A stretch of 63,992 nt of DNA, the filler included, from Basidiobolus ranarum (Eukaryota), in NCBI GenBank assembly GCA_040143965.1. It is 8 parts of 8 records of this genome, joined end to end, with 100 filler letters (N's around TTAATTAATTAA, not from the genome) between each part and the next. Parts side by side here need not be neighbours in the genome. Positions count along the whole stretch, not along the records: positions 24,248 to 32,216 come from JASJQH010007914.1; 7 more parts are not named here. One strand, written 5' to 3'. Below the pieces are notes generated by a model, which saw only the letters and a list, made by a program, of their open reading frames with translations, did no database searches and was not told the origin of the DNA. Both the position numbers and the translations under genes were made by a program. Positions within the stretch are counted from its first letter, which is position 1. Every line of letters starts with the position of its first letter. Of the stretch, positions 7,988-56,492 are shown one piece after another.

Positions 7988-8087
7988 NNNNNNNNNNNNN
8001 NNNNNNNNNNNNNNNNNNNNNNNNNNNNNNNTTAATTAATTAANNNNNNNNNNNNNNNNNNNNNNNNNNNNNNNNNNNNNNNNNNNN
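7988..8087. other. Artificial contig spacer
   Basis: N44-TTAATTAATTAA-N44, with stops in all six frames. Confidence 0.98.
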
Positions 8088-16071: not shown

Positions 16072-16171
16072 NNNNNNNNNNNNNNNNNNNNNNNNNNNNN
16101 NNNNNNNNNNNNNNNTTAATTAATTAANNNNNNNNNNNNNNNNNNNNNNNNNNNNNNNNNNNNNNNNNNNN
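16072..16171. other. Artificial contig spacer
   Basis: N44-TTAATTAATTAA-N44. Confidence 0.98.
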
Positions 16172-16778: not shown

Positions 16779-19459
16779 ATGGCCTCACCTACCAGTACTC
16801 CAAGTCTCAACATCCATGATGATGCCAGAGCAGCCTATGAAAAGATATCTTGACAACTTAGGCAACTTATGTCTGAGAAAGATACACATTTTTGGAGTAC
16901 ATTTCCCTTCTTCAATCAAGAGCTGATGAAGAGCAAAGACAAGATCTTCAGGAAGTCATTGCTTCTGAGAAGGAAGAAACCACCATTCTTAAATAAAGTC
17001 CCCAAGATCTTGCCAAAACAATTCTCAATGTGGAGAATCCTCCAACCTTCACCATATCTCCATCAAGAACCACTCTTACATCTGCTGCAATTGATCCCAC
17101 TAGCACCCCTAGATCAGATATAGCCATTGTTCCTAAGTCCCTGCCTCTCTTTGCAGAAGGACACAATGCCATCAAAGATCCCACTGAGTTTCTTTACAAA
17201 TTCACCAATGTCTTAGTTGCTCACCAACTAGATACAGACACCAACTGGGCAAGACTACTACCACTTTGTCTCACCATGCAAGATGCTGACTGGGTAGAAT
17301 GTAACCTTCCAGCTACCAGGTCCTGAAAAGATGCCCAAGATTTCTTTTGGAAGCAATTTGATGATCCACTCAAGAAAGCTCACTTACACCATGATCTTTG
17401 GAGAACTAGAATGCAAAAGGATGAAACAGTCCAACATTTCTGCAACAAGTTCCAAAGACATATGCAAGAAGCTTGAGTGCAAGACTCTGATCCTTTACTC
17501 ACTGCCTGCTTTCTCTCCAACTTCAATACCACTCTGCAGAAAAACCTGAAAATTATTAAGGCTGGAAGTCCAACATGTAGCTATCACAAGGTTTCAAAAG
17601 TTGCTTCTATAGCAATCTCCATACTTGCTGCTACAAGTAGCACTACTTACTTTGCTCACCACCAACCTTATCAATCAAGTTTCCAAAACATCAATTCTGC
17701 TAGGAATGCCACAAGTCCAAAGTACCGCCAACTTCATGGGAAAGGTTCCCATGCTACCAATGATTGAAGAACTTTAAGCAACAAAGCTAATAAGCCAAAC
17801 CAACCAACCACCAAGACAGAAAATCCCTATCCTGATGGCCACTGCTTTATATGCAATGAGCTTGATCATAGAGCACCTGTCTGTCCACAAAACAAAGCAC
17901 CTAATGCTAAACTGACCCAAGTCTCAGAGGATTCAATATCTAAACCAGATGATGCTCCTGCAGAAGATTTCATAAGTTTTGAAAAAGCTGCTCACAAAAT
18001 TACAGTAAAAGACTATCAAAATCTCTTTGACTGTTCAGCCAAAATTGCCACCATCAATCATAAGAAGCAAACCACCAACCACCTTAAAGCTATCAAGTAC
18101 CCTTAATACTTAATGGTCTCCAATACATAGCACTATTGGATACTGGAGCCACCAACTCTGTTGTATGACCCAGAGTAGTGAAAGAGCTTGATTTTGAAAT
18201 AGAAAAACAACCTGGAAACATTATTCTTAGTGCCAAAGATGTTTCTGCCCCAAGAATAGGAGTTACCAACTCTGTCAATATTCAATGTGGAAATTCTCAA
18301 ATATCTCATCACCTGGAAGTAATGAATATCCCTGATGGGACAATGGTTGTTATTGGTCTATACATATTCACTCAACTTGACTTCAATATAGGAGGACTAC
18401 CAGTCTTTTATCCTAGATTTAGCAAATCTTTACCATCTGATTCTGATCACAAATCAGAAGTAATCTCAGAAACTCATGAACAATAAGAATTATCACCTTC
18501 CTTTCAAGCATATCCTAACTCTGTCAAGTTATCTATTCAACCTGCTATTGAAACAAAGCAGAAAATCCCAAAGAACAGTTTCTGCACAACACCATAGTCT
18601 CTGGTTACATTGGGAATACCATCTGGAGAAACAACTTGGAGAAGATAATAACAAATTCCACATATGCTACAACCTTTAGTTGATGAAGTAGTACCAAAAT
18701 TGGCTGATATTGACATTTTCACTCAAGCACCCGTCCACACTACCTTCAACACCCCTTTGACTTAATCACTAAAGAAGGATTCAGAGGGATATCTTATGCT
18801 AAAATGACCCTGTTAGATCCAAGACCTCCAAACAACTACTACAGGATGATAAATTTTATATCTCTAGGATCAATGACATCTTTTCCTCACTCTCAGGAGC
18901 ACAAGTATTTTCTAAATTGGATTTAAAAGATGCTCATCATCAATATCAGATTCATCCAGACCACCAACACAAGTCTGCTTTCACATTGAGAAACATGCCA
19001 TGGATGTTGCAAGGAGCACTCTTGGGACTTAGGACATTGACCACCAAGTTTCAAACAGTTATGACTATCGTACCCAAAGATGCTAGATATGCCTTAGTGT
19101 TTGTTAATGGTGTTATCATTTTCTCAACTAATGCAGCTGATCAGACAACCCATGTTGCTGATATTATCAGCCATCTTACTTCTGCTGGACTTACCTTAAA
19201 TGCTGAAGAATGCAGCTTTGCCTGCCTTAAAATCAAGCTACTTGGTTTTATTGTTACTCCTACAGGCCACCAACTAGAACCTTTCAAGTTAGTCGTCATT
19301 GTGGTTTTTCCTATGCCCACTACTGCTAAACAACCTCAACATTTTCTTGGAGTCTTCAACTATTTCAGGGAACATATGCCACTGTTTTCTACTCTAAGTG
19401 CACCACTTGATTCCTTATGGTGCAGTGTTGGAAGTTTTCCAACAATATCTTGCACATAA
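16779..19459 (+). mobile_element. Degenerate Ty3/gypsy LTR retrotransposon (gag, protease, RT)
   Basis: Zn-knuckle-like CFICNELDHRAPVC (about 17840), aspartic protease ALLDTGATNS (about 18130), RT motifs LDLKDAHHQ, decayed YxDD (FVNGVII), KLLGFIV and FLGVFNYFR. Many stops and frameshifts. Confidence 0.88.
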
Positions 19460-24147: not shown

Positions 24148-24247
24148 NNNNNNNNNNNNNNNNNNNNNNNNNNNNNNNNNNNNNNNNNNNNTTAATTAAT
24201 TAANNNNNNNNNNNNNNNNNNNNNNNNNNNNNNNNNNNNNNNNNNNN
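24148..24247. other. Artificial contig spacer
   Basis: N44-TTAATTAATTAA-N44. Confidence 0.98.
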
Positions 24248-26780
24248 GTTCTTGTAGAATCTCACACAAGTAGACCTGAGTTGGTTGTTTATCAGTGCTC
24301 CATTTGCGGTAATTGAAGAATATCTTTACAAGAGATTCGCGCAATAGCTCCAAGTGAGGAGCCTCAGAGGTGGCCTGTATAAATCCTTGAATTTGTGTGA
24401 GCGCTGGTTTGGCTTCTAAATCAATCCATCTTGCGAGAATATCTTTGACAGTTTCTGAGCCAAGAAGGAATTCTGGTACCTGAAAGCCGTCATCGCTGAT
24501 AATAGTAATGTACATATCAAGGCTTAAATTAATGAATTTGGATATTTTGCGGATCTCTTGGGGCCGATTGTTTGGCAATATTAACATGTGTCCACCCTCC
24601 TTATATCCATCCACTTTGTCAGGTAAAGTGAAAGAAAACTTACGTACGGATCTTCCGGGATTCTCCTGAGATAGCCAAGAAATAAACCGAGTTTTTTTAT
24701 ACATCAACGAACTTTCAGTCATGCGAAAGGTGCTGTAACTCTGGATACATTCATTTCGAGCCCGATGTTTGTCTGATAGCATCAATTCCAAACTTAAACT
24801 GGTAGGCGTAAGACTTGTTCGTGGAGAATATATCCCACTGTTGATGACTTCGATCACCGATTTCATCCACTTTTCGAATATCCCCTCCTGATCACCACTC
24901 TTGGCATCTCCTACACCAAGTTTGACTATTCGCTCTCCCCCCAATCTCTCAAGTACATTATCAAAGAATCGCGCACAAGCATTAAATTGAGTATAGTCTG
25001 AACTACAGCACCCAAACACGCCAAACTCCACTCCGCTGAGCATGTTGTTATCTCCTGTTTCAGGAATGAAGCCAGAAATGGTATTCAACTGATTATAAAG
25101 ACGTTGAGCTCATTGAGGTGGACCACCAATACCGAAAGTAGAGACTATAACCAATATGTAATACCTAGTCTTACTCGAAGCTCTCAAGTCGTTCTTCAAT
25201 TTCGATATATTATCTATGGAAGCCATAGAGTGAAGGGTAATGTTGTCTTCCTTGCCTTTAGACGCAGAGATATAATTGTGTAGCAAGGTGGCAAAGGTAA
25301 AAGAGGTACCTGTCTCAGTAGCATAAATTATACGGATGTTTTTGCTGTTTTCTGGAGAGATCTCCGCTAGTAGCTCATCCGATGATAAGCTTGATGCAAG
25401 AGATGGGCAAGTGCTGACTGGAGTGGGCGTTTGGAGGGGTTCAGGATTGTACTCACGGATCTTCGAGATTGATAATCCGGGAAGAAAGTTCGGCTTTACA
25501 AATACGTTGATCATCTCCTGATGAAACACTGGGCATCCACTACCCGAGAGAGGTGGCACAATCCAAACCCAGTCAGCGGGACAAAAACCACGACTTTTGA
25601 CCTCTTGCTCGTGAAAACTCATAAATGACTTTGACGCTGTATGATGATCCACTATGGTGACGCCAGCCCTCTCAAAGCTCTGCATGATGGCCGTGGTAAC
25701 TTCAACTAGGGCTCTATCCTTCCATAATGGCACTGAAGGTTCCAAACCCAGTACTTTACGAGAAATCGTTGGCAATAGATTATATCGTTGTACATCCGTG
25801 AGGTTACGCATGATTTCTGTGCACATGTACCAACCATTAAATGGAGCACAAGGATATTGTATGCCGCCAATATCTAATACGAAGTCAGATATAGCAGGAA
25901 CTGCATGCCATTGAAGCTTTAATCGCTCCAGTTCCGGATACTTGTTATGGGTCAAGGGGATGGTTAGTATTGCGTCATCCGGGATGATTCCAAGGAAAGG
26001 AGCATATCCAGGTGCCTGAGTAACCAGTGGTAAAATATCGAAAGCAGTACGCTCATCTCCAGGCTTACACCAGCCCATTTCCAAGCACACCTTTGTAATT
26101 TCTATATTTGCGGGGTCACCCAATATGGTTCCATCGAGCTGTTCATAGCCTGCGTAGCGAACCAGCTGTGAATTCCAAATTCGACAACCAACATCCTCTC
26201 CAGGTAATATTTGAGGGAATACTGTCATCAAAGAGTTGACTACATGTTTAGGGAATTGTGGGGAACCACTGCTAGTAGTAGCGCCTCTCAGGTGATTCAC
26301 AGCACCTTCGAACACCTCTTTACTTGAAATATGACCAACCTGAAGTTCGTTGGCCTCTGAGTCCATAAATGTACAGCGAGCATCGATTATTTCGATATTT
26401 TTAAATTGTGCTCGCATGATACATCTTGAAGAGTTCCGCCATGCGGTTTTGACTCCGTATTCCAACTCTTCTTTAGTGTGTACATAATACCCTTGACTAA
26501 GTATTTGTCGACTAACTTGATAGAGGCGCCTGCTTAATTGAATACCAGTCTCTTCGTCGTCACCAACTGCAGTTTTGTAATACTCTCTCAAGAACTCCAA
26601 TGCCTCTGCTTCTATCTGTTTGGGGGACCTGTATGGGTCGAAATGCTCGCCGTCTGATTTATTCATGGTAGCTGCATGACACTGATTTTTGGTGCAGCCT
26701 AGGCCGTAAGGCTTGGGTGAGTCTTGTTGGGGAAACTTGTGCAGTATTGATGAGCCATGTTCCAATTGAAAGAGCTCCAT
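24248..26780 (-). CDS. Nitric oxide synthase (oxygenase + flavodoxin + start of FAD domain); intronless, one in-frame TGA at 25110-25112, 3' truncated by the contig end
   Basis: AWRNSSRCIMR (heme Cys), RIWNSQLVRYAGY, GDPAN, PFNGWYMCTEI, IVDHHTAS and CPADWVWIVPPLSGS..PVFHQEM. Then IIYATETGTS, VSTFGIGGPP, FGVFG..SSDY..F and YKEGGHMLILPNN. The two track ORFs are in the same frame. Confidence 0.93.
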
Positions 26781-29036
26781 AGTATCACCGATGTACCTGT
26801 CGTTTCCAGGAGCAGATTGACGTGAACCCGAATTATATAGTGTTCTGAAAGAATATTTCAGGAGACTGACATTTCATCCTCGTGTCAGGAGTTGCTAAAA
26901 TAATTCCATTCTATTCTGGACTGTCTAAATTTATTTACCCCTATAAATGAGAGTTGTATATCAAATAGGGACCATATGCATCCGGAAACTCCATACTACC
27001 AGTGTTGCCTAAGCACCCCAAAACCCTAGCCCCGGCGTTAACACTAGAGTGTAATAGCGTAGTTGCTACAGGGATAGCCTTGCTAGTACAATGCTTACCT
27101 TTGCTACATAATGAGATCGTAGTCTATTCAAGATACAACGACGCCTCTGCGCCTCTAAGGATTGTCTATTTCGTACTTTCTACGCACCTAGTTTCACCTG
27201 GTTGAATCAAAACTGTCAGCGGAGAGTGTCAAAGTTTTTGTTTCATCGAAATTTTGCTAGAAACCGGAATTAGTCCACCCATAGCGGGATGCTTAGATTA
27301 AAACTGGCTAGTTAAAGATGATATTCAATAAAGATTGGGTTTCAATGGTTCTTAATCAATGCCCCTTGATAATCATGAATATTCTTCAAATGGTGTCAGT
27401 ATCTCATCTATAATGAGGGGATTTTCAACACCAATGGTGGTGGTCATTAATCAATAAATGAGCATGCATTGTTGATTGTGATCTTATTAGGAACCTGTGT
27501 AGCACACGCTAAAGCTGCGGGCCTCAGATTGAATTCTCAGCTGGAAATCCCTCACACATCCCATAGGCTTCCAGAGAGTGAAGACGGCTCAGATCAGGTT
27601 TGTGATGCAAATTGGTTATATCCAATGTATTATCTGCCGGTGGATTAGCTAGAAACTTGTGCATTCATTTTCCATGTGTTGCACTAGCTCAAGCCAAATA
27701 GGGCGCAGCGAGAACGTAGACCAAAACAATTGCAAGTCAGCCTCAATTCTTCGAGAGTCCTTCTGTGAGTGGGGCCATACTCCTCTGACGAACCTGGTAG
27801 TATCTTGGAGTGGAAAGCCCTCCAACAATTCGAAGGAGTGGCAATCGTCGATTCGTGAGAAGTTGCTTCTTCAAAAAGGATCCTATTGTATATTATATTC
27901 AACTCAGATAAAGAAGCATATTCTCTAAATCAAATCTATCCTTATTTGGTAAAGGTTCTTTAAACTCTCACATTATCGCACCAATCAATGCGGCAGAACA
28001 AGGTCAAAACAAGGTCAGTATTTAATGCAATAGACTTTCTGAGTTTCAGTTTTGTGAGCTTAGTGGGTTTGGTCAATAGAGATCATCTACTGGCACCTCT
28101 GGTGCAAATGTTGTGACACTTTATGCCGCACACACCCTAATCATCATAGGTTTTGCTGCACATTGGAAAACGCTACAAAATTTAAACCTTGTTTAGCTTG
28201 AATACTGTCTGACAACTCTAGACCTGTATCACTAAGCTCGCTTGATATATGGCAAAGACAGCTAATTGATGGTTGCACACTCAGTTTCACTTCCATTTCA
28301 ATACCTCGATATCGTAAGACTGATATTCTACTTTTCTCCGAATAATATTCCGTAGACATACCATTGGGCCTGGTTTTACAAGGATCGAAATTACTGTAGT
28401 GTAACATGATGCTATAGTAGAAGGACGACAAATAGCAGCTTGGAAACTACCACGAGAGGATACAAGCTTGGCTTGCACCGTAATCCTGATGTCAATGAGG
28501 AATTTATGACCCTCAGTTATTACTAAATATCTTCCTTTCATGTGACTTGGTAAAGTCGAAAAACAACTGTATAATCAGAAATATAATCGATAAGGGTCTG
28601 CATCACTAACCTGCTCACCGGATGACGAGCTAGTCACAAGTGATGTGCGTTCTAGTCCATGAGCAACCTTTTTTAGCTTGGGAATAAATGGCTGGTATGA
28701 CAGCAGTTTGGTCCGACTACAAGATAACAGAATTAATGCCCAAAGCAGCCAAGCTTCGGCATAAAGCGGGGATGTTTGATTTGTGTTTAATAATTAGATA
28801 ATAAAAAGAGAAGAAATCTTAGAGACAAGCAAATGGCACGTGTTGTGCGATTAATTACGGAGATCTTTGGGTGTAAATAGGTACCAGAATAAGGCTGCTT
28901 ATTTGAAAACGAAATTAACACATAAAGTGAATGTACATTTAAATCATACTACGGAGGAGACAACCGAGAGGATGAAGCTAAAACGAATTGAGTGAAGCGC
29001 TAAGTTGAATGGTCAATGAATAGAGATCCTTGAGTT

Positions 29037-32000
29037 TCAATAAAACTGGCTAATCTCTTCACTATCCAAAAGGCCAATTTGTGCCACGGTCAAGTCAATC
29101 TCATTTAGCATATTCTGTGATGTAATTAAGGTGGTTAATGAGGCTTCCAAAAGAAAAGGTGAAATTTGCATATATACTCAATATGCAGAATACGTGAATG
29201 TAATTTACTACCTTGATAACCAGGTTTCTATCTGAATGATGCAGATTCATTTTCAAAATGTTGTACAGCTTGACCCTTAACTCATCTAGTTCTTCTACAT
29301 TAAACTCCTCTGTCTTTTCTATTATATGTTTCTCCAATAGTACCAATGTTGATGGATCCCAGATAACTTGTTTACACTGGATATCTTCGTCCATTTTCTC
29401 ATCTGATATGTTTTGCTCTTTACTTGGCTCTGGAGATAATGATACACGGTCAGGTACCGTTGAGGGTAGCGGTGATGGCAAAAGTGATGGTGATGTAGTT
29501 TCTTCATTCCCTACTTCCTTCATAAGCGTCTCAACATTGGAACCACTTGGTGGTGTACCTGCGGGAGTAAGAGCCCCCACAGGATTGTTGGTATCGGTGA
29601 CGCTCTTAATATCACTTCTACCATCATCCACTTGGCAAGGTGTGCCTGATTTACCGAGAGGACTCTTGCGAATTTCGGAGTCAGCAGGGGTTTCGTGATA
29701 GTACCTTGACGCACTTTGCTCGGCCTCCTCAATTAGTTCCGGGTCTATGCGCTCAATCATTGCATAAGCTACATCTTCCAAAGATTTCGCCTGGATGTTA
29801 CAAAAAGGAACACTGTTAGTTATGGATATATTATGTTACATGATATTAGAAGCCTACCCGGTAAAAGTTCTTTCCCTGATCGTAAGCACCAAAATAAAGT
29901 TCAGTGTTCCTACAATTAAATCTATATCCCTTAAATATTCTTTTACTGTGCGGTATTGACCCAAATTTATCTTTTCCATGATAGTAGAGAGATCCATGGG
30001 CTCAGAAACTTTGAAATAATAATCTGGGTACTCCTCAGGATCCTAGAGGTAGATGAGATTGTTAGTCAGCACTACGGAATAACGATAGTATCCTACAAGA
30101 GGACTGGCTACATACCACTGATTTGAAAAATATCTTATATTTGCGTTCTTTGAATAGTTCCTCCGTGACTGAGCGGAGAGATATTCTAAGTTCCCGGAAG
30201 ACGTGCTCATCATGCTCCTTCAGCAAACTCCGCTCTTCCTCCGTAGGCTCTCTAGGTGCTGGTTTGGGGGCCAAAGGGAGTGGGGGAATAGGCTCTGACA
30301 CAATTGGCTCGGTGAATCTAGGTGACTTCGTAATGTCCTGTATTAACGTCTTGAAGAAAAGTTCACGGCTTTGTTTGGAGGGCATACGTAAGTTAACATT
30401 CTTCCTATGAGCAAAATCGGACATTCGTAATAACTCTGATGGAAGGCTACTAAGCGGACTATCACATGTTGCTATAAAAATAATAGGGTCATACGGATTG
30501 ATGTCCTTTAATAGACTGAAAAACGTGTTGCGCATCGAATCAGTAATCGAACGCCACCAATGGTCGATACTAGGAACATAAACAACACAAGGCTTATGTC
30601 TCTTGACTTCGTGGAATAAATGGACACACTTTGTTTCTGGAGTACCCGATTCATCACCGAACAAGCTGGCGGTGTCAAAACTGTACACATGAAAATCCTC
30701 CAGATAATTAAGAATAGCCGGCCCCAAGTACGCTTGACCCATACCTGATTCCCCGGAGATTAAAAGACGTGGACGGTAGTGTTCTTCGTCATTAAGCTCT
30801 CCAAGCATCAAGACTCCTGTATCGGTCGATGTCCTGGGATTCTTTTTGCCTTTCAGATTTTTTATCAATGGCTCTAGAATCTGAAGGATGTTTTCCCAAG
30901 CATTGGTAAGTAACGGTTTTATAGCAGTTGGAAGAGGGTTCACTTGCAAAGGAGACGAGCGTTGTGAACAGGGAATAGTGGTCTTTATAGCTTCCAAGAA
31001 ATCAGCAGCAGTGATTTCAATATTTTTTGGCTCAATCAAAAGTTTTTCGTCACTATCATAAATTTGTGGATACCTCCTTCGTATAGCTTTTAACGCAGCT
31101 TCGGTGGATAAGGCTTTTAAATCCGCCCCGCCATACCCTTTGGTCATTACAGCCAAACGATCTTTAAGTTCCTCCGATATTGGTGGATTCCATTTTTTTG
31201 TATTGATATCTATTATGGTTCTTCTGGCCACCTGATTTGGCAACGAAAAATAAAACTCTCTATCAAACCGACCTGGTCTACGAAGTGCTGGATCGATGGC
31301 ATCAATTCTATTCGTGGCTCCAATCACCACAACTTGTCCACGATTATCTAAGCCATCCATTAACGCCAATAGAGTGGAGACAATAGAGGAGTGTACCTGC
31401 TCTTGCTTACTCGACCGAACTGGGGCCAGTCCATCTATCTCATCGAAAAATATTATGCTGGGCTGCCAAGCTTTAGCCTCCTCAAATAGAAGTCGAAGTT
31501 GTCGCTCAGCTTCACCGACCCATTTACTCAGACAATCAGCACCCTTACGCATGAAAAAAGCGACCTTTTGAGATTCCGTAGAGCAGCTGTTGGCCAATGC
31601 ACGAGCTACTAGAGTTTTACCAGTCCCTGGCGGGCCATAAAACAGAACTCCTCTTGGGGGAGTAATACTGAATTGAGTATAGATTTCAGGGTAAAGTAGA
31701 TGTAATAGCACCATTTCCTTAAGTGACTGAATATGTGAGTCCAAACCACCAATTGAACTGAAACCAACTTCCTCATTAACTGCAACTGGATCGATGTCGG
31801 CCAAGTTCGCAGTTCCCGAGCTAACTCCCTTTCCTTTGCGTAGTAACCCTCTTCCTCTACCATTCAATTGTCTTGCATTAAGAGGCATAATCCGTTCCGA
31901 TTCTTCCTCTTCTGATGCTCCACCCTTATTCGAAAGCATGTGACCGAAATTTCGCTTCTTCTGGGAATGGGTAAAATTCTCCAAGTGACGCAGCCGGTTG

Positions 32001-32216
32001 TATTGCTCTTCGAGTTGAGCAAGTTTAATAATATCTCGAGCCGAATCGGGACCATAAGAGCTATGTCGGTTATTTCGTAAATTGTATGGACGCGAGTTTC
32101 CGACCGAATTTGTCGGATCTCGACCCTGCTGATAAAAATAATAAAGCCTTAAAGTAAGCATGATTTACTAAATGAAATAAACTTGTTGAATAATTCGATA
32201 AACCTACCGACATTAC
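29037..32216 (-). CDS. YTA7: ATAD2/Yta7-like AAA+ ATPase with bromodomain, multi-exon, 5' partial
   Basis: [54 protein letters not shown], second [16 protein letters not shown], and bromodomain exon [19 protein letters not shown]. Last exon 29037-29099. Confidence 0.93.
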
Positions 32217-32316
32217 NNNNNNNNNNNNNNNNNNNNNNNNNNNNNNNNNNNNNNNNNNNNTTAATTAATTAANNNNNNNNNNNNNNNNNNNNNNNNNNNN
32301 NNNNNNNNNNNNNNNN
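32217..32316. other. Artificial contig spacer
   Basis: N44-TTAATTAATTAA-N44. Confidence 0.98.
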
Positions 32317-40279: not shown

Positions 40280-40379
40280 NNNNNNNNNNNNNNNNNNNNN
40301 NNNNNNNNNNNNNNNNNNNNNNNTTAATTAATTAANNNNNNNNNNNNNNNNNNNNNNNNNNNNNNNNNNNNNNNNNNNN
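40280..40379. other. Artificial contig spacer
   Basis: N44-TTAATTAATTAA-N44. Confidence 0.98.
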
Positions 40380-46118: not shown

Positions 46119-47186
46119 TTATACTGTAAAATGTGGCCGAGTAATTTGTAATTGGCAGAGCAAAGCGATAGTTTCTCCGAAATAAGTATTATCATCCAAC
46201 TCGTCCATTTGCTTTTGGATTTTGGGGAGGTTTGGATGGTTAATTAACCACATAGAAAGTGCGGCAGGTGCCATGAAAGCAAGGTCAGTATAATCGACTA
46301 ACTGCTTGCCGTCCAATTTATAACCAGCCTTGACTTCAGACTGATGGGCAAAGAAGTTCGCTAGAGCCTGGAGCAGGGGATAGACTCTGTTATCTCTTGA
46401 CTCGATATAATAGATGGTCAGACGCCAGGGAACACGGCAACTATTCCAACTGTAATCCTTGTCATGTTTGCTCTCTAAGACTTCTCCTTTCACGGGTACA
46501 TATTCCTGTCCGTTGTGCTCGAGAAAATCAGCAATCAATCCAGTATGAGGATGGAAGGTTAACTGACGCTCCACAGTTCGAACGGTGGCCTCCAGAATTC
46601 TAATCCAGCCATCTCTTCTTTCGGGAGCATCTTCTCTGGAGAATAGAAGTACATGTGTAAGAAGAAAGTCAGAAGGACGAGTAAGTTTGTCGTGCTTGGA
46701 ACCACTTTCAACCCAATCACCTAAACGAAACATGCAGGTGTTCCAGTTTACACAGTGCTCGTAAATTGCTTTACAGAGAGATATAGCTCTGTCCCGGTAG
46801 GAGGGGTTATTCCAGGTTTTTGAAGCAATGAAAAGCGCAGCTGCGACATCAACATCACCGTCAGTAGCACAATTCTCACCACCATCAGGAGCATTAGAGA
46901 TTCGTCCAGTTTTCAAATCCATAACCTGCTGCCAAGCCATAAGACCTTTTTTGTTTCTGAAGTTGTCAAAGTAACGGACCAGGCCTTCAAAATCTTGAGG
47001 GTTTCCTTTTAGTACCGAGATGAGCATACCATAGCCATGGGCCTCACTACAAGTAATTGGCTTGAGGTTGCCAACTTTTTCGAGCTCATCTTTGTCGTTG
47101 TAGTAAACATAATAACTATTGCCATTAGCCGAGCGGAGATACCTATTCCTCCAAGCAACGTACTTCTGCTCAATAGAATGACTCAT
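46119..47186 (-). CDS. Glycoside hydrolase family 8 (GH8b-like chitosanase/beta-glucanase), intronless
   Basis: SEAHGYGML (catalytic Glu), LMAWQQ, ATDGDVDVAAAL, TRPSDF, TGLIADF and LES...YSWNSCRVPWR. Confidence 0.92.
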   Translation of the reverse strand: MSHSIEQKYVAWRNRYLRSANGNSYYVYYNDKDELEKVGNLKPITCSEAHGYGMLISVLKGNPQDFEGLVRYFDNFRNKKGLMAWQQVMDLKTGRISNAPDGGENCATDGDVDVAAALFIASKTWNNPSYRDRAISLCKAIYEHCVNWNTCMFRLGDWVESGSKHDKLTRPSDFLLTHVLLFSREDAPERRDGWIRILEATVRTVERQLTFHPHTGLIADFLEHNGQEYVPVKGEVLESKHDKDYSWNSCRVPWRLTIYYIESRDNRVYPLLQALANFFAHQSEVKAGYKLDGKQLVDYTDLAFMAPAALSMWLINHPNLPKIQKQMDELDDNTYFGETIALLCQLQITRPHFTV

Positions 47187-48338
47187 ATGTAATGGACTAG
47201 GTTTGAAATGTTTACAGCGGAGAAGGAGGAGGGAGAGATTTATTTAAATAAGAGATCCATGAACCTGGTGAATAATGTCCCATGTTCAAGTTTGACTCTA
47301 GTATATGCAGAAAAATATCCCAGATATAATTAGAGTAACTACTAAGTATAATCTGCACCCTCGATAATTGTTAAGCCATTGGAGGTATTGTTCCCCTATA
47401 TGTGGCAATTATTGTTTACCAATCAAGTATAATATACAAGCATATGGATAGTATTTTACGGATCACCATACATGTCTGATCGACACAAACAAACTAAGGA
47501 AAACAGGGTTGATTAAATATCTATGTATAGCAACGAATTAGTCCCAGGCGGAAGACATATAGCTATCTTATTGATTCTAAATCAATTATACAATTAAGGA
47601 TCGGATGAAAGAACACGATATACCGGCATTCTTGCCAAGAGCAGCGACCAACCAATCAACCTCCTTTATCGTGTTACACGATGGAAGCTAACCTGGGCTT
47701 CATTGAGAGATAATCACCCAGATATGCCTAAATTGATTCGTTGAATTTAAACTCACATTATGCTAATGAGCACCAACTTGGCTGGGTTAATTGACAAAGG
47801 TAGTCTCTGCTTCCCCAATGGAAAATAGCTCTGGCAATACGTTGTGGATTCCAAGCTGGCTCTCGGTTGAACAGGTATAGTATAGTGATGCAAGAACTGC
47901 ATTCATTTGGTCATGTGACCCTCAGATCATTGCTTTTAACATTGATTTTATGCTAGATGGATGGCTTATAATCAGCTTATATGCACTGATATGGAGAGTC
48001 AGTTTCTTGTCCACTTTTTAGCATTCAAATCGCAGATGGACTGCTCTGATTGGTACTACGGATTTCGGATGGGTATTCCTACAATTAAGTTGCTATCATG
48101 TTAGAAGTTATTCCGGAGAGCGGGAGCCATATGTTGGATTCTCAGTATGGTTATAATACATTAGAGTCAAAAAATACTCTGTGAGCTTTGATTTTATTAA
48201 ACTTGTTCAGAGACTAGAGTCCCGTATTGGAGTATCAAAGGATCGTGGAGTTACTAAACGACAAAATTGAACCACTTACTACCATTGGAGGTCATGGTTT
48301 GGGGCTAAGGATGGGCTATTCCGGTATACATGAGAATT

Positions 48339-48438
48339 NNNNNNNNNNNNNNNNNNNNNNNNNNNNNNNNNNNNNNNNNNNNTTAATTAATTAANNNNNN
48401 NNNNNNNNNNNNNNNNNNNNNNNNNNNNNNNNNNNNNN
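48339..48438. other. Artificial contig spacer
   Basis: N44-TTAATTAATTAA-N44. Confidence 0.98.
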
Positions 48439-56392: not shown

Positions 56393-56492
56393 NNNNNNNN
56401 NNNNNNNNNNNNNNNNNNNNNNNNNNNNNNNNNNNNTTAATTAATTAANNNNNNNNNNNNNNNNNNNNNNNNNNNNNNNNNNNNNNNNNNNN
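56393..56492. other. Artificial contig spacer
   Basis: N44-TTAATTAATTAA-N44. Confidence 0.98.

Follow-up and report, generated by a model that had tools for sequence, protein, structure and literature searches.

A putative nitric oxide synthase gene, interrupted as assembled, in the early-diverging fungus Basidiobolus ranarum

The source of arginine-dependent nitric oxide (NO) in fungi is described as unclear in a passage of PMC10889981, where nitric oxide synthase (NOS) genes are said to be "rarely found." A locus in assembly GCA_040143965.1 of Basidiobolus ranarum, a fungus placed by NCBI in the phylum Basidiobolomycota, raises the questions of whether this organism has a NOS of its own, what kind of NOS it is, and whether the gene is intact. 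The stretch of DNA that was analyzed (the window, 63,992 nucleotides including filler) joins eight contigs, and the locus lies on the minus strand at one end of the contig that occupies positions 24248-32216 (7,969 bases). The best explanation of the data is that the locus is a native nuclear gene for a full-length type of NOS from a small fungal clade, interrupted as assembled, and we regard this explanation as probable. The gene copy as assembled cannot encode a working NOS because there is a TGA in its flavin mononucleotide (FMN) domain and the contig ends within its flavin adenine dinucleotide (FAD) domain.

Domain Organization and Catalytic Residues

The minus-strand frame opens with an ATG at 26780 and extends to 24249, where it ends with the contig. 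Position 24248 is therefore the end of a contig and not the natural end of a gene, and the NOS gene is cut there. Pfam profiles were run on the read-through protein with X in place of the stop. The best solved structure for this protein is that of neuronal NOS (nNOS; PDB 8t1j, E = 4.8e-106), and the positions of conserved residues are given below with their nNOS counterparts.

24248-26780, minus strand: NOS gene fragment, with its ATG at 26780 and 844 codons, one of them the TGA, up to the end of the contig
26679-26696, minus strand: CX4C zinc-site motif (Cys29 and Cys34), aligned with Cys326 and Cys331 of the solved nNOS chain
25482-26621, minus strand: NOS oxygenase (heme) domain, residues 54-433 (PF02898 NO_synthase, 403.6 bits against a cut-off of 22.7, profile positions 3-355 of 362)
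26421-26441, minus strand: WRNSSRC motif with the heme-stacking Trp114 and the heme thiolate Cys120, equivalent to nNOS Trp409 and Cys415
25890-25892, minus strand: Ile297, at the position of rat nNOS Val567 (the animal/bacterial Val/Ile switch) in the alignment to nNOS
25815-25817, minus strand: substrate-binding Glu322, aligned with nNOS Glu592
25563-25571, minus strand: pterin-site Trp pair, Trp404 and Trp406 (WVW), aligned with nNOS Trp676 and Trp678
25332-25481, minus strand: linker between the oxygenase and FMN domains, Pro/Ser/Thr-rich and acidic, with no basic amphipathic helix of the calmodulin type
24867-25331, minus strand: flavodoxin (FMN) domain, residues 484-638 (PF00258 Flavodoxin_1, 62.3 bits against a cut-off of 25, profile positions 1-143 of 143)
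25110-25112, minus strand: in-frame TGA, codon 557, inside the FMN domain, occupying one ungapped column of the alignment
24267-24641, minus strand: first part of the FAD-binding domain (PF00667 FAD_binding_1, 24.6 bits, below the cut-off of 32.3, profile positions 30-158 of 222)

The FAD_binding_1 score falls under its cut-off because the contig end leaves only that portion of the profile to be matched. In addition to the residues listed, Arg325 aligns with nNOS Arg596, and the nNOS residues Trp587 and Tyr588 are also kept. Both zinc-site cysteines are present in 8 of the 13 rows of the NOS protein alignment (A1). A CX4C motif in an N-terminal segment that precedes the heme domain is characteristic of the zinc-tetrathiolate, pterin-binding dimer of eukaryotic NOS. 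The loop that follows the catalytic Glu322 is one residue shorter than in most relatives, a feature found also in the Physarum row and in eight further rows among the 29 rows listed.

Most of the relatives in alignment A1 carry a conserved Cys-Pro-Phe motif in an N-terminal extension, ~60 residues ahead of the zinc motif. This motif may be akin to the heme-regulatory Cys-Pro motifs. No exon encoding it was found in any frame of 26781-29100, and the B. ranarum protein is without the extension.

A sequence-only reading of this DNA had described an intronless gene in which a complete NOS oxygenase domain is followed in the same frame by flavodoxin and FAD-domain motifs. The complete oxygenase domain is confirmed, and the motifs that were quoted for it are in place at the coordinates listed. 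The frame is collinear with its relatives in the alignment, and the part that is present needs no intron, as had been claimed. The account of the reductase holds in part: the flavodoxin profile is matched over its whole length and the FAD profile over some of its length, but the frame is broken by the TGA at 25110-25112, which had been overlooked. The more general claim of an oxygenase-reductase NOS in an early-diverging fungus is borne out by the Pfam domains and by the neighboring gene, the deposited product of which is named as from B. ranarum. As compared with the 1,102-residue Jimgerdemannia protein, ~230 residues are absent, namely the remainder of the FAD domain together with the NADPH domain. 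Four relatives used as tblastn queries match only the NOS locus within the window.

The In-frame Stop Codon

The TGA column is part of a conserved FMN-loop stretch, G-x-G-x-P-P-x-N-A, and is occupied by Asn in at least 80% of the other 23 rows. Because the TGA fills one ungapped column it is, on the evidence of the alignment, a point difference and neither an intron nor a frameshift. Two special readings of the codon were considered and rejected. An intron spanning the TGA is incompatible with a stop in an ungapped conserved column; the one GT..AG pair that was tried around it is 44 nt long, which is not a multiple of three, and its removal would delete the conserved G-x-G-x-P-P-x-N-A stretch. 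Selenocysteine is used by some early fungi; at this position it is rejected because the column is predominantly Asn, as noted above, and the site has no redox role.

Past the TGA there are 287 codons with no in-frame stop, as compared with 13 and 23 stops in the other two frames, and none of 20,000 shuffles of this segment stayed open. The oxygenase domain was compared with 56 other NOS domains chosen for diversity from animals, algae, amoebae, fungi, and bacteria. It keeps all 20 of the invariant columns, all 50 of those conserved at the level of 95% or more, and 61 of the 63 conserved at 90% or more; the two that are not kept are W126F, which aligns with nNOS Trp421, and P279N. The terminal branch leading to the B. 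ranarum sequence in the IQ-TREE phylogeny described below has a length of 0.75, as compared with 0.69 for Jimgerdemannia and 0.90 for Phlyctochytrium. No decay is evident in the oxygenase domain. With one lesion, an undecayed oxygenase domain, and 287 open codons downstream, the stop would be a sequencing or assembly error, an allelic variant in a genome with several copies, or a genuine inactivation of very recent date, and we consider an error or allele about equally likely as an inactivation. The exact 24-base sequence beside the stop had no match in the metagenome contigs.

Relatives and Phylogenetic Placement

Relatives were collected in a word-indexed search of 5.8 billion clusters, which gave 1,359 proteins with E ≤ 0.001 among the 8,000 candidates scored, and in an exhaustive HMMER pass over 1.84 billion representatives, which gave 2,233 proteins with E ≤ 0.001. 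After the 556-residue product of the locus itself, the best match is a protein of Jimgerdemannia flammicorona designated "nitric oxide synthase, partial" (P0003), with 39% identity over 96% of the query. The next matches are two unnamed JGI proteins (37%) and proteins of the saprolegnian oomycetes Thraustotheca and Aphanomyces (36-41%). Relatives that consist of an oxygenase domain only, with 488-517 residues, are 48-52% identical over that domain. The profile search found no further named member of the group to which the B. ranarum NOS belongs.

Two trees were calculated from the oxygenase domains. (i) A FastTree phylogeny included 170 rows, 13 of the 183 sequences having been dropped because they covered fewer than 280 profile positions. 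(ii) An IQ-TREE phylogeny, under LG+C20+F+G4 by the posterior mean site frequency (PMSF) method, included 57 of the 170 rows and 365 columns, with all 17 members of the clade that contains the B. ranarum sequence and samples of every other group. In the latter, the B. ranarum NOS is sister (99/94) to the other 11 members of an inner 12-row clade (100/99), namely Jimgerdemannia, three unnamed proteins, three oomycete proteins, and four of a Chitinophagaceae type. A wider 17-row clade (98/89), recovered with a support of 98 in the FastTree phylogeny of 170 rows, adds Phlyctochytrium bullatum, Dendrothele bispora, the Pterulicium gracile cluster, and two unnamed proteins. Animal NOS form a clade of their own (100/99), and typical bacterial NOS are in a separate part of the tree.

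This placement supports the view that the B. ranarum NOS belongs to an old fungal NOS lineage. Because the clade holds a chytrid, an endogonalean fungus, and two basidiomycetes, the tree favors old fungal ancestry accompanied by many losses over a recent import. The nodes that order the large NOS groups are weak (72/30 and 65/36 in IQ-TREE), and a shared opisthokont origin with animal NOS is neither shown nor excluded by the tree. The sequence-only reading had offered a choice between an ancestral opisthokont gene retained in this fungus and a horizontal acquisition; the fungal clade (98/89) inclines the choice toward old ancestry, but the link to animals that retention from an opisthokont ancestor implies is weakly supported.

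A partial NOS-like protein of another chytrid, Caulochytrium protostelioides (P0398), lies outside the fungal clade and groups with the diatom Eucampia (99/94), so that the NOS genes of fungi would have had more than one origin. A protein-guided scan of metagenome contigs found only two NOS loci, L081 (490-2626) and L082 (4001-6137), on mixed-culture contigs of 30 and 55 kb with a GC content of 62%. They are 41% identical to the B. ranarum protein over residues 59-646, and the match in L082 is split over two frames.

Oomycete and Bacterial Sequences within the Fungal Clade

Full-length NOS of the saprolegnian oomycetes Thraustotheca and Aphanomyces (P0006-P0009, P0049, and P0055) branch inside the fungal clade. 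Oxygenase-only NOS of 488-497 residues (P0011, P0012, P0013, and P0015) are also nested among its fungal and oomycete members (100/99); these have a eukaryote-like N-terminal extension with the second zinc Cys only. One of the oxygenase-only clusters includes a protein from a Chitinophagaceae metagenome-assembled genome (MAG), where it is encoded on a contig of 178,861 bases. When prokaryote species genomes were scanned with the Chitinophagaceae-type protein, 582 relatives were found, of which the best 80 are 39-52% identical, with no near-identical genome among them.

A tree was also calculated in which the five named fungi were constrained to form one clade, apart from the oomycete, the Chitinophagaceae-type, and all other named rows; no constraint was placed on the five unnamed members of the clade. 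The log-likelihood of this tree is lower by 52.9 units, and the approximately unbiased (AU) test rejects it (p-AU = 3.8e-5), although the fungal group so constrained was chosen after the tree had been seen. Because the constrained tree is rejected and the deeper branches are occupied by fungi, the most economical interpretation of the sequences, with a direction that is tentative, would be that a fungal lineage passed the gene to saprolegnian oomycetes and to Bacteroidota. The nesting of the oomycete NOS is consistent with a transfer from fungus to oomycete, and the nesting and eukaryote-like N-terminal extension of the oxygenase-only Chitinophagaceae-type NOS suggest a transfer from eukaryote to bacterium. 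The oomycete and Bacteroidota sequences nested among fungal NOS are the more unusual result of this work, but they lie outside the window.

The Contig and Its Neighboring Gene

The other features that bear on the origin of the locus are the following.

29101-32164, minus strand: YTA7/ATAD2-type gene encoding an AAA+ and bromodomain protein, truncated at its 5' end on the contig, with AAA, AAA-lid, and bromodomain matches
26781-29100, no strand: spacer separating YTA7 from NOS, in which long open frames are absent (40-52 stops per frame in 26900-29050)
7988-8087, 16072-16171, 24148-24247, 32217-32316, 40280-40379, 48339-48438, and 56393-56492, no strand: artificial joiners between contigs, not genomic

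YTA7 is ~2.3 kb upstream of NOS on the same strand of the same contig. Its deposited product (P0161, 744 residues) is 100% identical to the window, and the source of that product is named as Basidiobolus ranarum. The deposited model maps to two exons separated by an intron of 73 nt (30043-30115) that begins with GTATGT and ends with AG, so that the sequence-only reading was correct in placing the NOS gene on one contig with an intron-containing fungal YTA7. The relative synonymous codon usage (RSCU) of the two NOS halves correlates with that of YTA7 with coefficients of 0.48 and 0.45, whereas out-of-frame controls give 0.15 and 0.09; the GC content by codon position is similar in the NOS halves and in YTA7, and GC along the contig is even, at 0.39-0.44 per 2 kb. 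Because the locus is linked to an intron-bearing fungal gene and shares its codon usage, it does not appear to be a bacterial contaminant, in agreement with the earlier view, and its identification as a native nuclear gene of B. ranarum is part of the explanation that we hold to be probable.

At the other end of the contig, the last ~95 nt (32122-32216, minus strand) are AT-rich and encode a nad5/nad4-like peptide (Proton_antipo_M, E = 0.0018, below the cut-off). This piece is an assembly chimera of read-length size or else an insert of mitochondrial DNA.

The eight contigs of the window are separate, each of ~8 kb, and are arranged in order of descending length, and features on different contigs have no physical linkage. 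The joiners have the form N44-TTAATTAATTAA-N44, giving 14 runs of 44 N that flank seven copies of TTAATTAATTAA. The other contigs contain ordinary eukaryotic genes, including those for a 6-phosphofructo-2-kinase, a CBF/Mak21 protein, an Rpb1-type polymerase subunit, and a Fet4-type permease. On one of them, an open frame of 374 codons (46119-47243, minus strand) has a match to glycoside hydrolase family 8 (E = 3.5e-24), most members of which are bacterial, and the frame is possibly a horizontally acquired gene. On another, an RVT_1 reverse-transcriptase open frame (18803-19459, plus strand) is presumably a retroelement.

Alternative Explanations

Several observations weigh against a native gene for a full-length NOS. 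The FMN domain is interrupted by one in-frame stop, and the public gene call on this contig (P0002, 556 residues) ends there. The missing end of the reductase was not found by tblastn with four relatives on the other seven contigs of the window. The reductase part is more divergent than the oxygenase domain; it deviates at 3 of 16 columns at the 95% level and at 9 of 38 at the 80% level, the stop being counted (24 rows, 2 of the 26 chosen proteins having been dropped for want of domain coordinates), and it has private changes at conserved columns, namely E626A, D730G in the GDH motif, and L814R. No NOS relative exceeds 48-51% identity in the 1.84 billion representatives or 48-52% among the candidates from the 5.8 billion clusters, and neither search found an ortholog from another Basidiobolus. 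The nad5/nad4-like 95 nt abut the middle of YTA7, so that this end of the contig looks chimeric at the scale of a read length, and assembly joins on the contig are for this reason not taken on trust. The stop, the private changes, and the missing ortholog would all favor a recent pseudogene in which the TGA is real in all copies; the product would then have at most 556 residues, an oxygenase with half of an FMN domain and no electron supply, and the gene would be heading for the loss that most fungi show. The patchy distribution of NOS in fungi, which implies frequent loss in the tree and in a part of PMC10889981, points the same way. However, there is a single lesion in 844 codons, the open state of the downstream segment is not reproduced by shuffling, the oxygenase domain keeps every column at the 95% level on a branch that is not lengthened, and the same observations are accounted for by one wrong base or by a difference between alleles. 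The deviations of the reductase are, moreover, within the fungal range, since at the 80% level there are 16 of 43 in Phlyctochytrium and 13 of 42 in Dendrothele. A pseudogene is accordingly possible but rather doubtful, and any inactivation would be very young, given the one lesion, the conserved oxygenase domain, and the open codons that follow.

It is improbable that the contig is contaminated or chimeric, with a NOS half from another fungus, an oomycete, or a bacterium joined by the assembler to the YTA7 of Basidiobolus. The fragmentation of the draft into contigs of ~8 kb, the mitochondrial-like piece fused to mid-YTA7, and the derivation of the nearest NOS relatives from other lineages, at only 37-52% identity, would be compatible with such a join, but both NOS halves match YTA7 in codon usage and in GC by codon position, and the GC of the contig is even. 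In addition, the nad5-like piece is of read-length size and 5.3 kb away from NOS, and since no sequenced oomycete, bacterium, or other fungus is more than 52% identical, no donor can be identified. Basidiobolus is reputed to hold many bacterial genes, and a recent acquisition of NOS from bacteria might be suspected from Ile297, which is the residue typical of bacteria, and from the presence of oxygenase-only proteins, one cluster of which includes the Chitinophagaceae MAG protein, among the closest relatives (48-51%). The B. ranarum NOS nevertheless branches outside those bacterial sequences, which are nested deeper among fungi and oomycetes; typical bacterial NOS are in a separate part of the tree; and the gene has a zinc motif of the eukaryotic type, a fused FMN/FAD reductase, and host-like codon usage. 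We regard this origin as very improbable indeed. A native nuclear NOS gene of B. ranarum, interrupted as assembled, is the explanation that is preferred here.

Proposed Enzyme and Its Regulation

The order of the domains would be an N-terminal zinc/pterin hook, the heme oxygenase, a short linker, FMN, FAD, and, presumably beyond the contig end, NADPH. The mechanism proposed is drawn from the conserved residues. If the frame is intact in the living strain, electrons from NADPH would pass through FAD and FMN to the heme of the partner subunit, and a zinc- and pterin-stabilized dimer would convert L-arginine and O2 to citrulline and NO.

The linker has 50 residues, of which 6 are acidic and 4 are basic, and its best 20-mer has a net charge of 0. 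By the same scan, which uses a crude index of charge and hydrophobicity on 11 proteins in all, the best 20-mer has a charge of +7 to +9 in three animal NOS, +5 in Physarum, and -1 to +4 in six other members of the clade. The alignment also indicates that the FMN domain of the B. ranarum protein is without an autoinhibitory insert. Because the linker contains no helix of the calmodulin type, gating of electron transfer by Ca2+/calmodulin is probably absent.

In the column of nNOS Val567, the 12-row clade has Ile in seven rows and Leu in five; Val is found in 12 of the 13 animal rows, and Ile in 10 of the 15 rows of the bacterial-type group. A passage of PMC6120233 states that the bacterial Ile at this position shields the heme and greatly slows the release of NO. 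The presence of Ile297 would thus predict bacterial-like kinetics with slow release of NO.

Comparison with Known Nitric Oxide Synthases

The fungal NOS of Jimgerdemannia (P0003), Phlyctochytrium (P0359), Dendrothele (P0061), and Pterulicium (the P0362 cluster) have the same oxygenase-FMN-FAD-NADPH order and belong to the same clade, and a calmodulin-type linker helix is absent in them as in the B. ranarum protein. With Jimgerdemannia alone, B. ranarum shares GCC in place of GLG in the FMN domain and a WCKP insertion. The nearest fungal NOS is 39% identical overall and 48% identical over the first 556 residues, and it is from a different phylum. In contrast to these fungal NOS, the B. ranarum copy has no N-terminal CPF extension, is interrupted by a stop, and is incomplete. 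No activity assay of the deposited fungal NOS proteins was found in the literature searched.

With the animal enzymes (nNOS, iNOS, and eNOS) the B. ranarum protein has in common the zinc CX4C motif, the heme Cys, the residues equivalent to Trp409 and Glu592, the pterin Trp pair, and a fused FMN/FAD reductase, and the lack of an autoinhibitory insert in the FMN domain resembles iNOS. It differs from them in its identity of only 31-34%, in having neither a basic calmodulin-binding helix nor a PDZ domain, and in having Ile rather than Val at position 567. The bacterial oxygenases of the Bacillus, Streptomyces, and similar types, which are not known to have a zinc hook or a fused reductase, share with the B. 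ranarum protein the oxygenase fold, the catalytic residues, Ile at the Val567 position, and Asn at the position of Asp597, but they lie in a separate part of the tree, and the B. ranarum protein has both the zinc hook and the fused reductase. The NOS of Physarum polycephalum is also a full-length eukaryotic type from outside the animals and has the same shorter loop after the catalytic Glu; however, it branches elsewhere in the tree, and its linker has a basic stretch with a net charge of +5. The Physarum NOS enzymes have been expressed recombinantly and characterized biochemically, according to a section of PMC2677215.

Implications

The high novelty that the sequence-only reading had assigned to the locus is not upheld. 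GenBank already includes proteins of this clade that are named as NOS, from Jimgerdemannia, Phlyctochytrium, and Pterulicium, and the truncated B. ranarum product (P0002) is itself in the public protein collection. Fungal NOS are also present in published trees: the NOS phylogenies include Aspergillus and Dendrothele in a part of PMC10073611, and a choanoflagellate NOS groups with metazoan and fungal NOS in an excerpt of bioRxiv 10.1101/2022.02.14.480389. No paper on NOS in Basidiobolus, Mucoromycota, or chytrids came up in our literature searches, and more fungal NOS may appear in the tree figures and supplements of PMC10073611 and of that bioRxiv preprint. The role in NO signaling or defense that had been suggested finds no support in the present sequence analysis.

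The value of the locus for Basidiobolus itself is limited by the stop codon and by the absence of the 3' end. For the family, the locus extends to a new phylum, and to a fifth named lineage of fungi, a coherent clade of canonical oxygenase-reductase NOS, the traits of which are the zinc motif, the lack of a calmodulin helix, and, in the inner 12 rows, Ile or Leu at the Val567 position. We put forward, as a tentative proposal that may well prove incorrect, that a calmodulin-independent zinc/pterin NOS with the bacterial-like Ile was present in the fungal common ancestor; that it works in scattered lineages of at least four phyla, including Basidiobolus, as the source of arginine-dependent NO; and that it was donated to saprolegnian oomycetes and, with its oxygenase domain only, to bacteria of the Chitinophagaceae. 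The clade provides a defined set of candidate enzymes for the source of NO in fungi.

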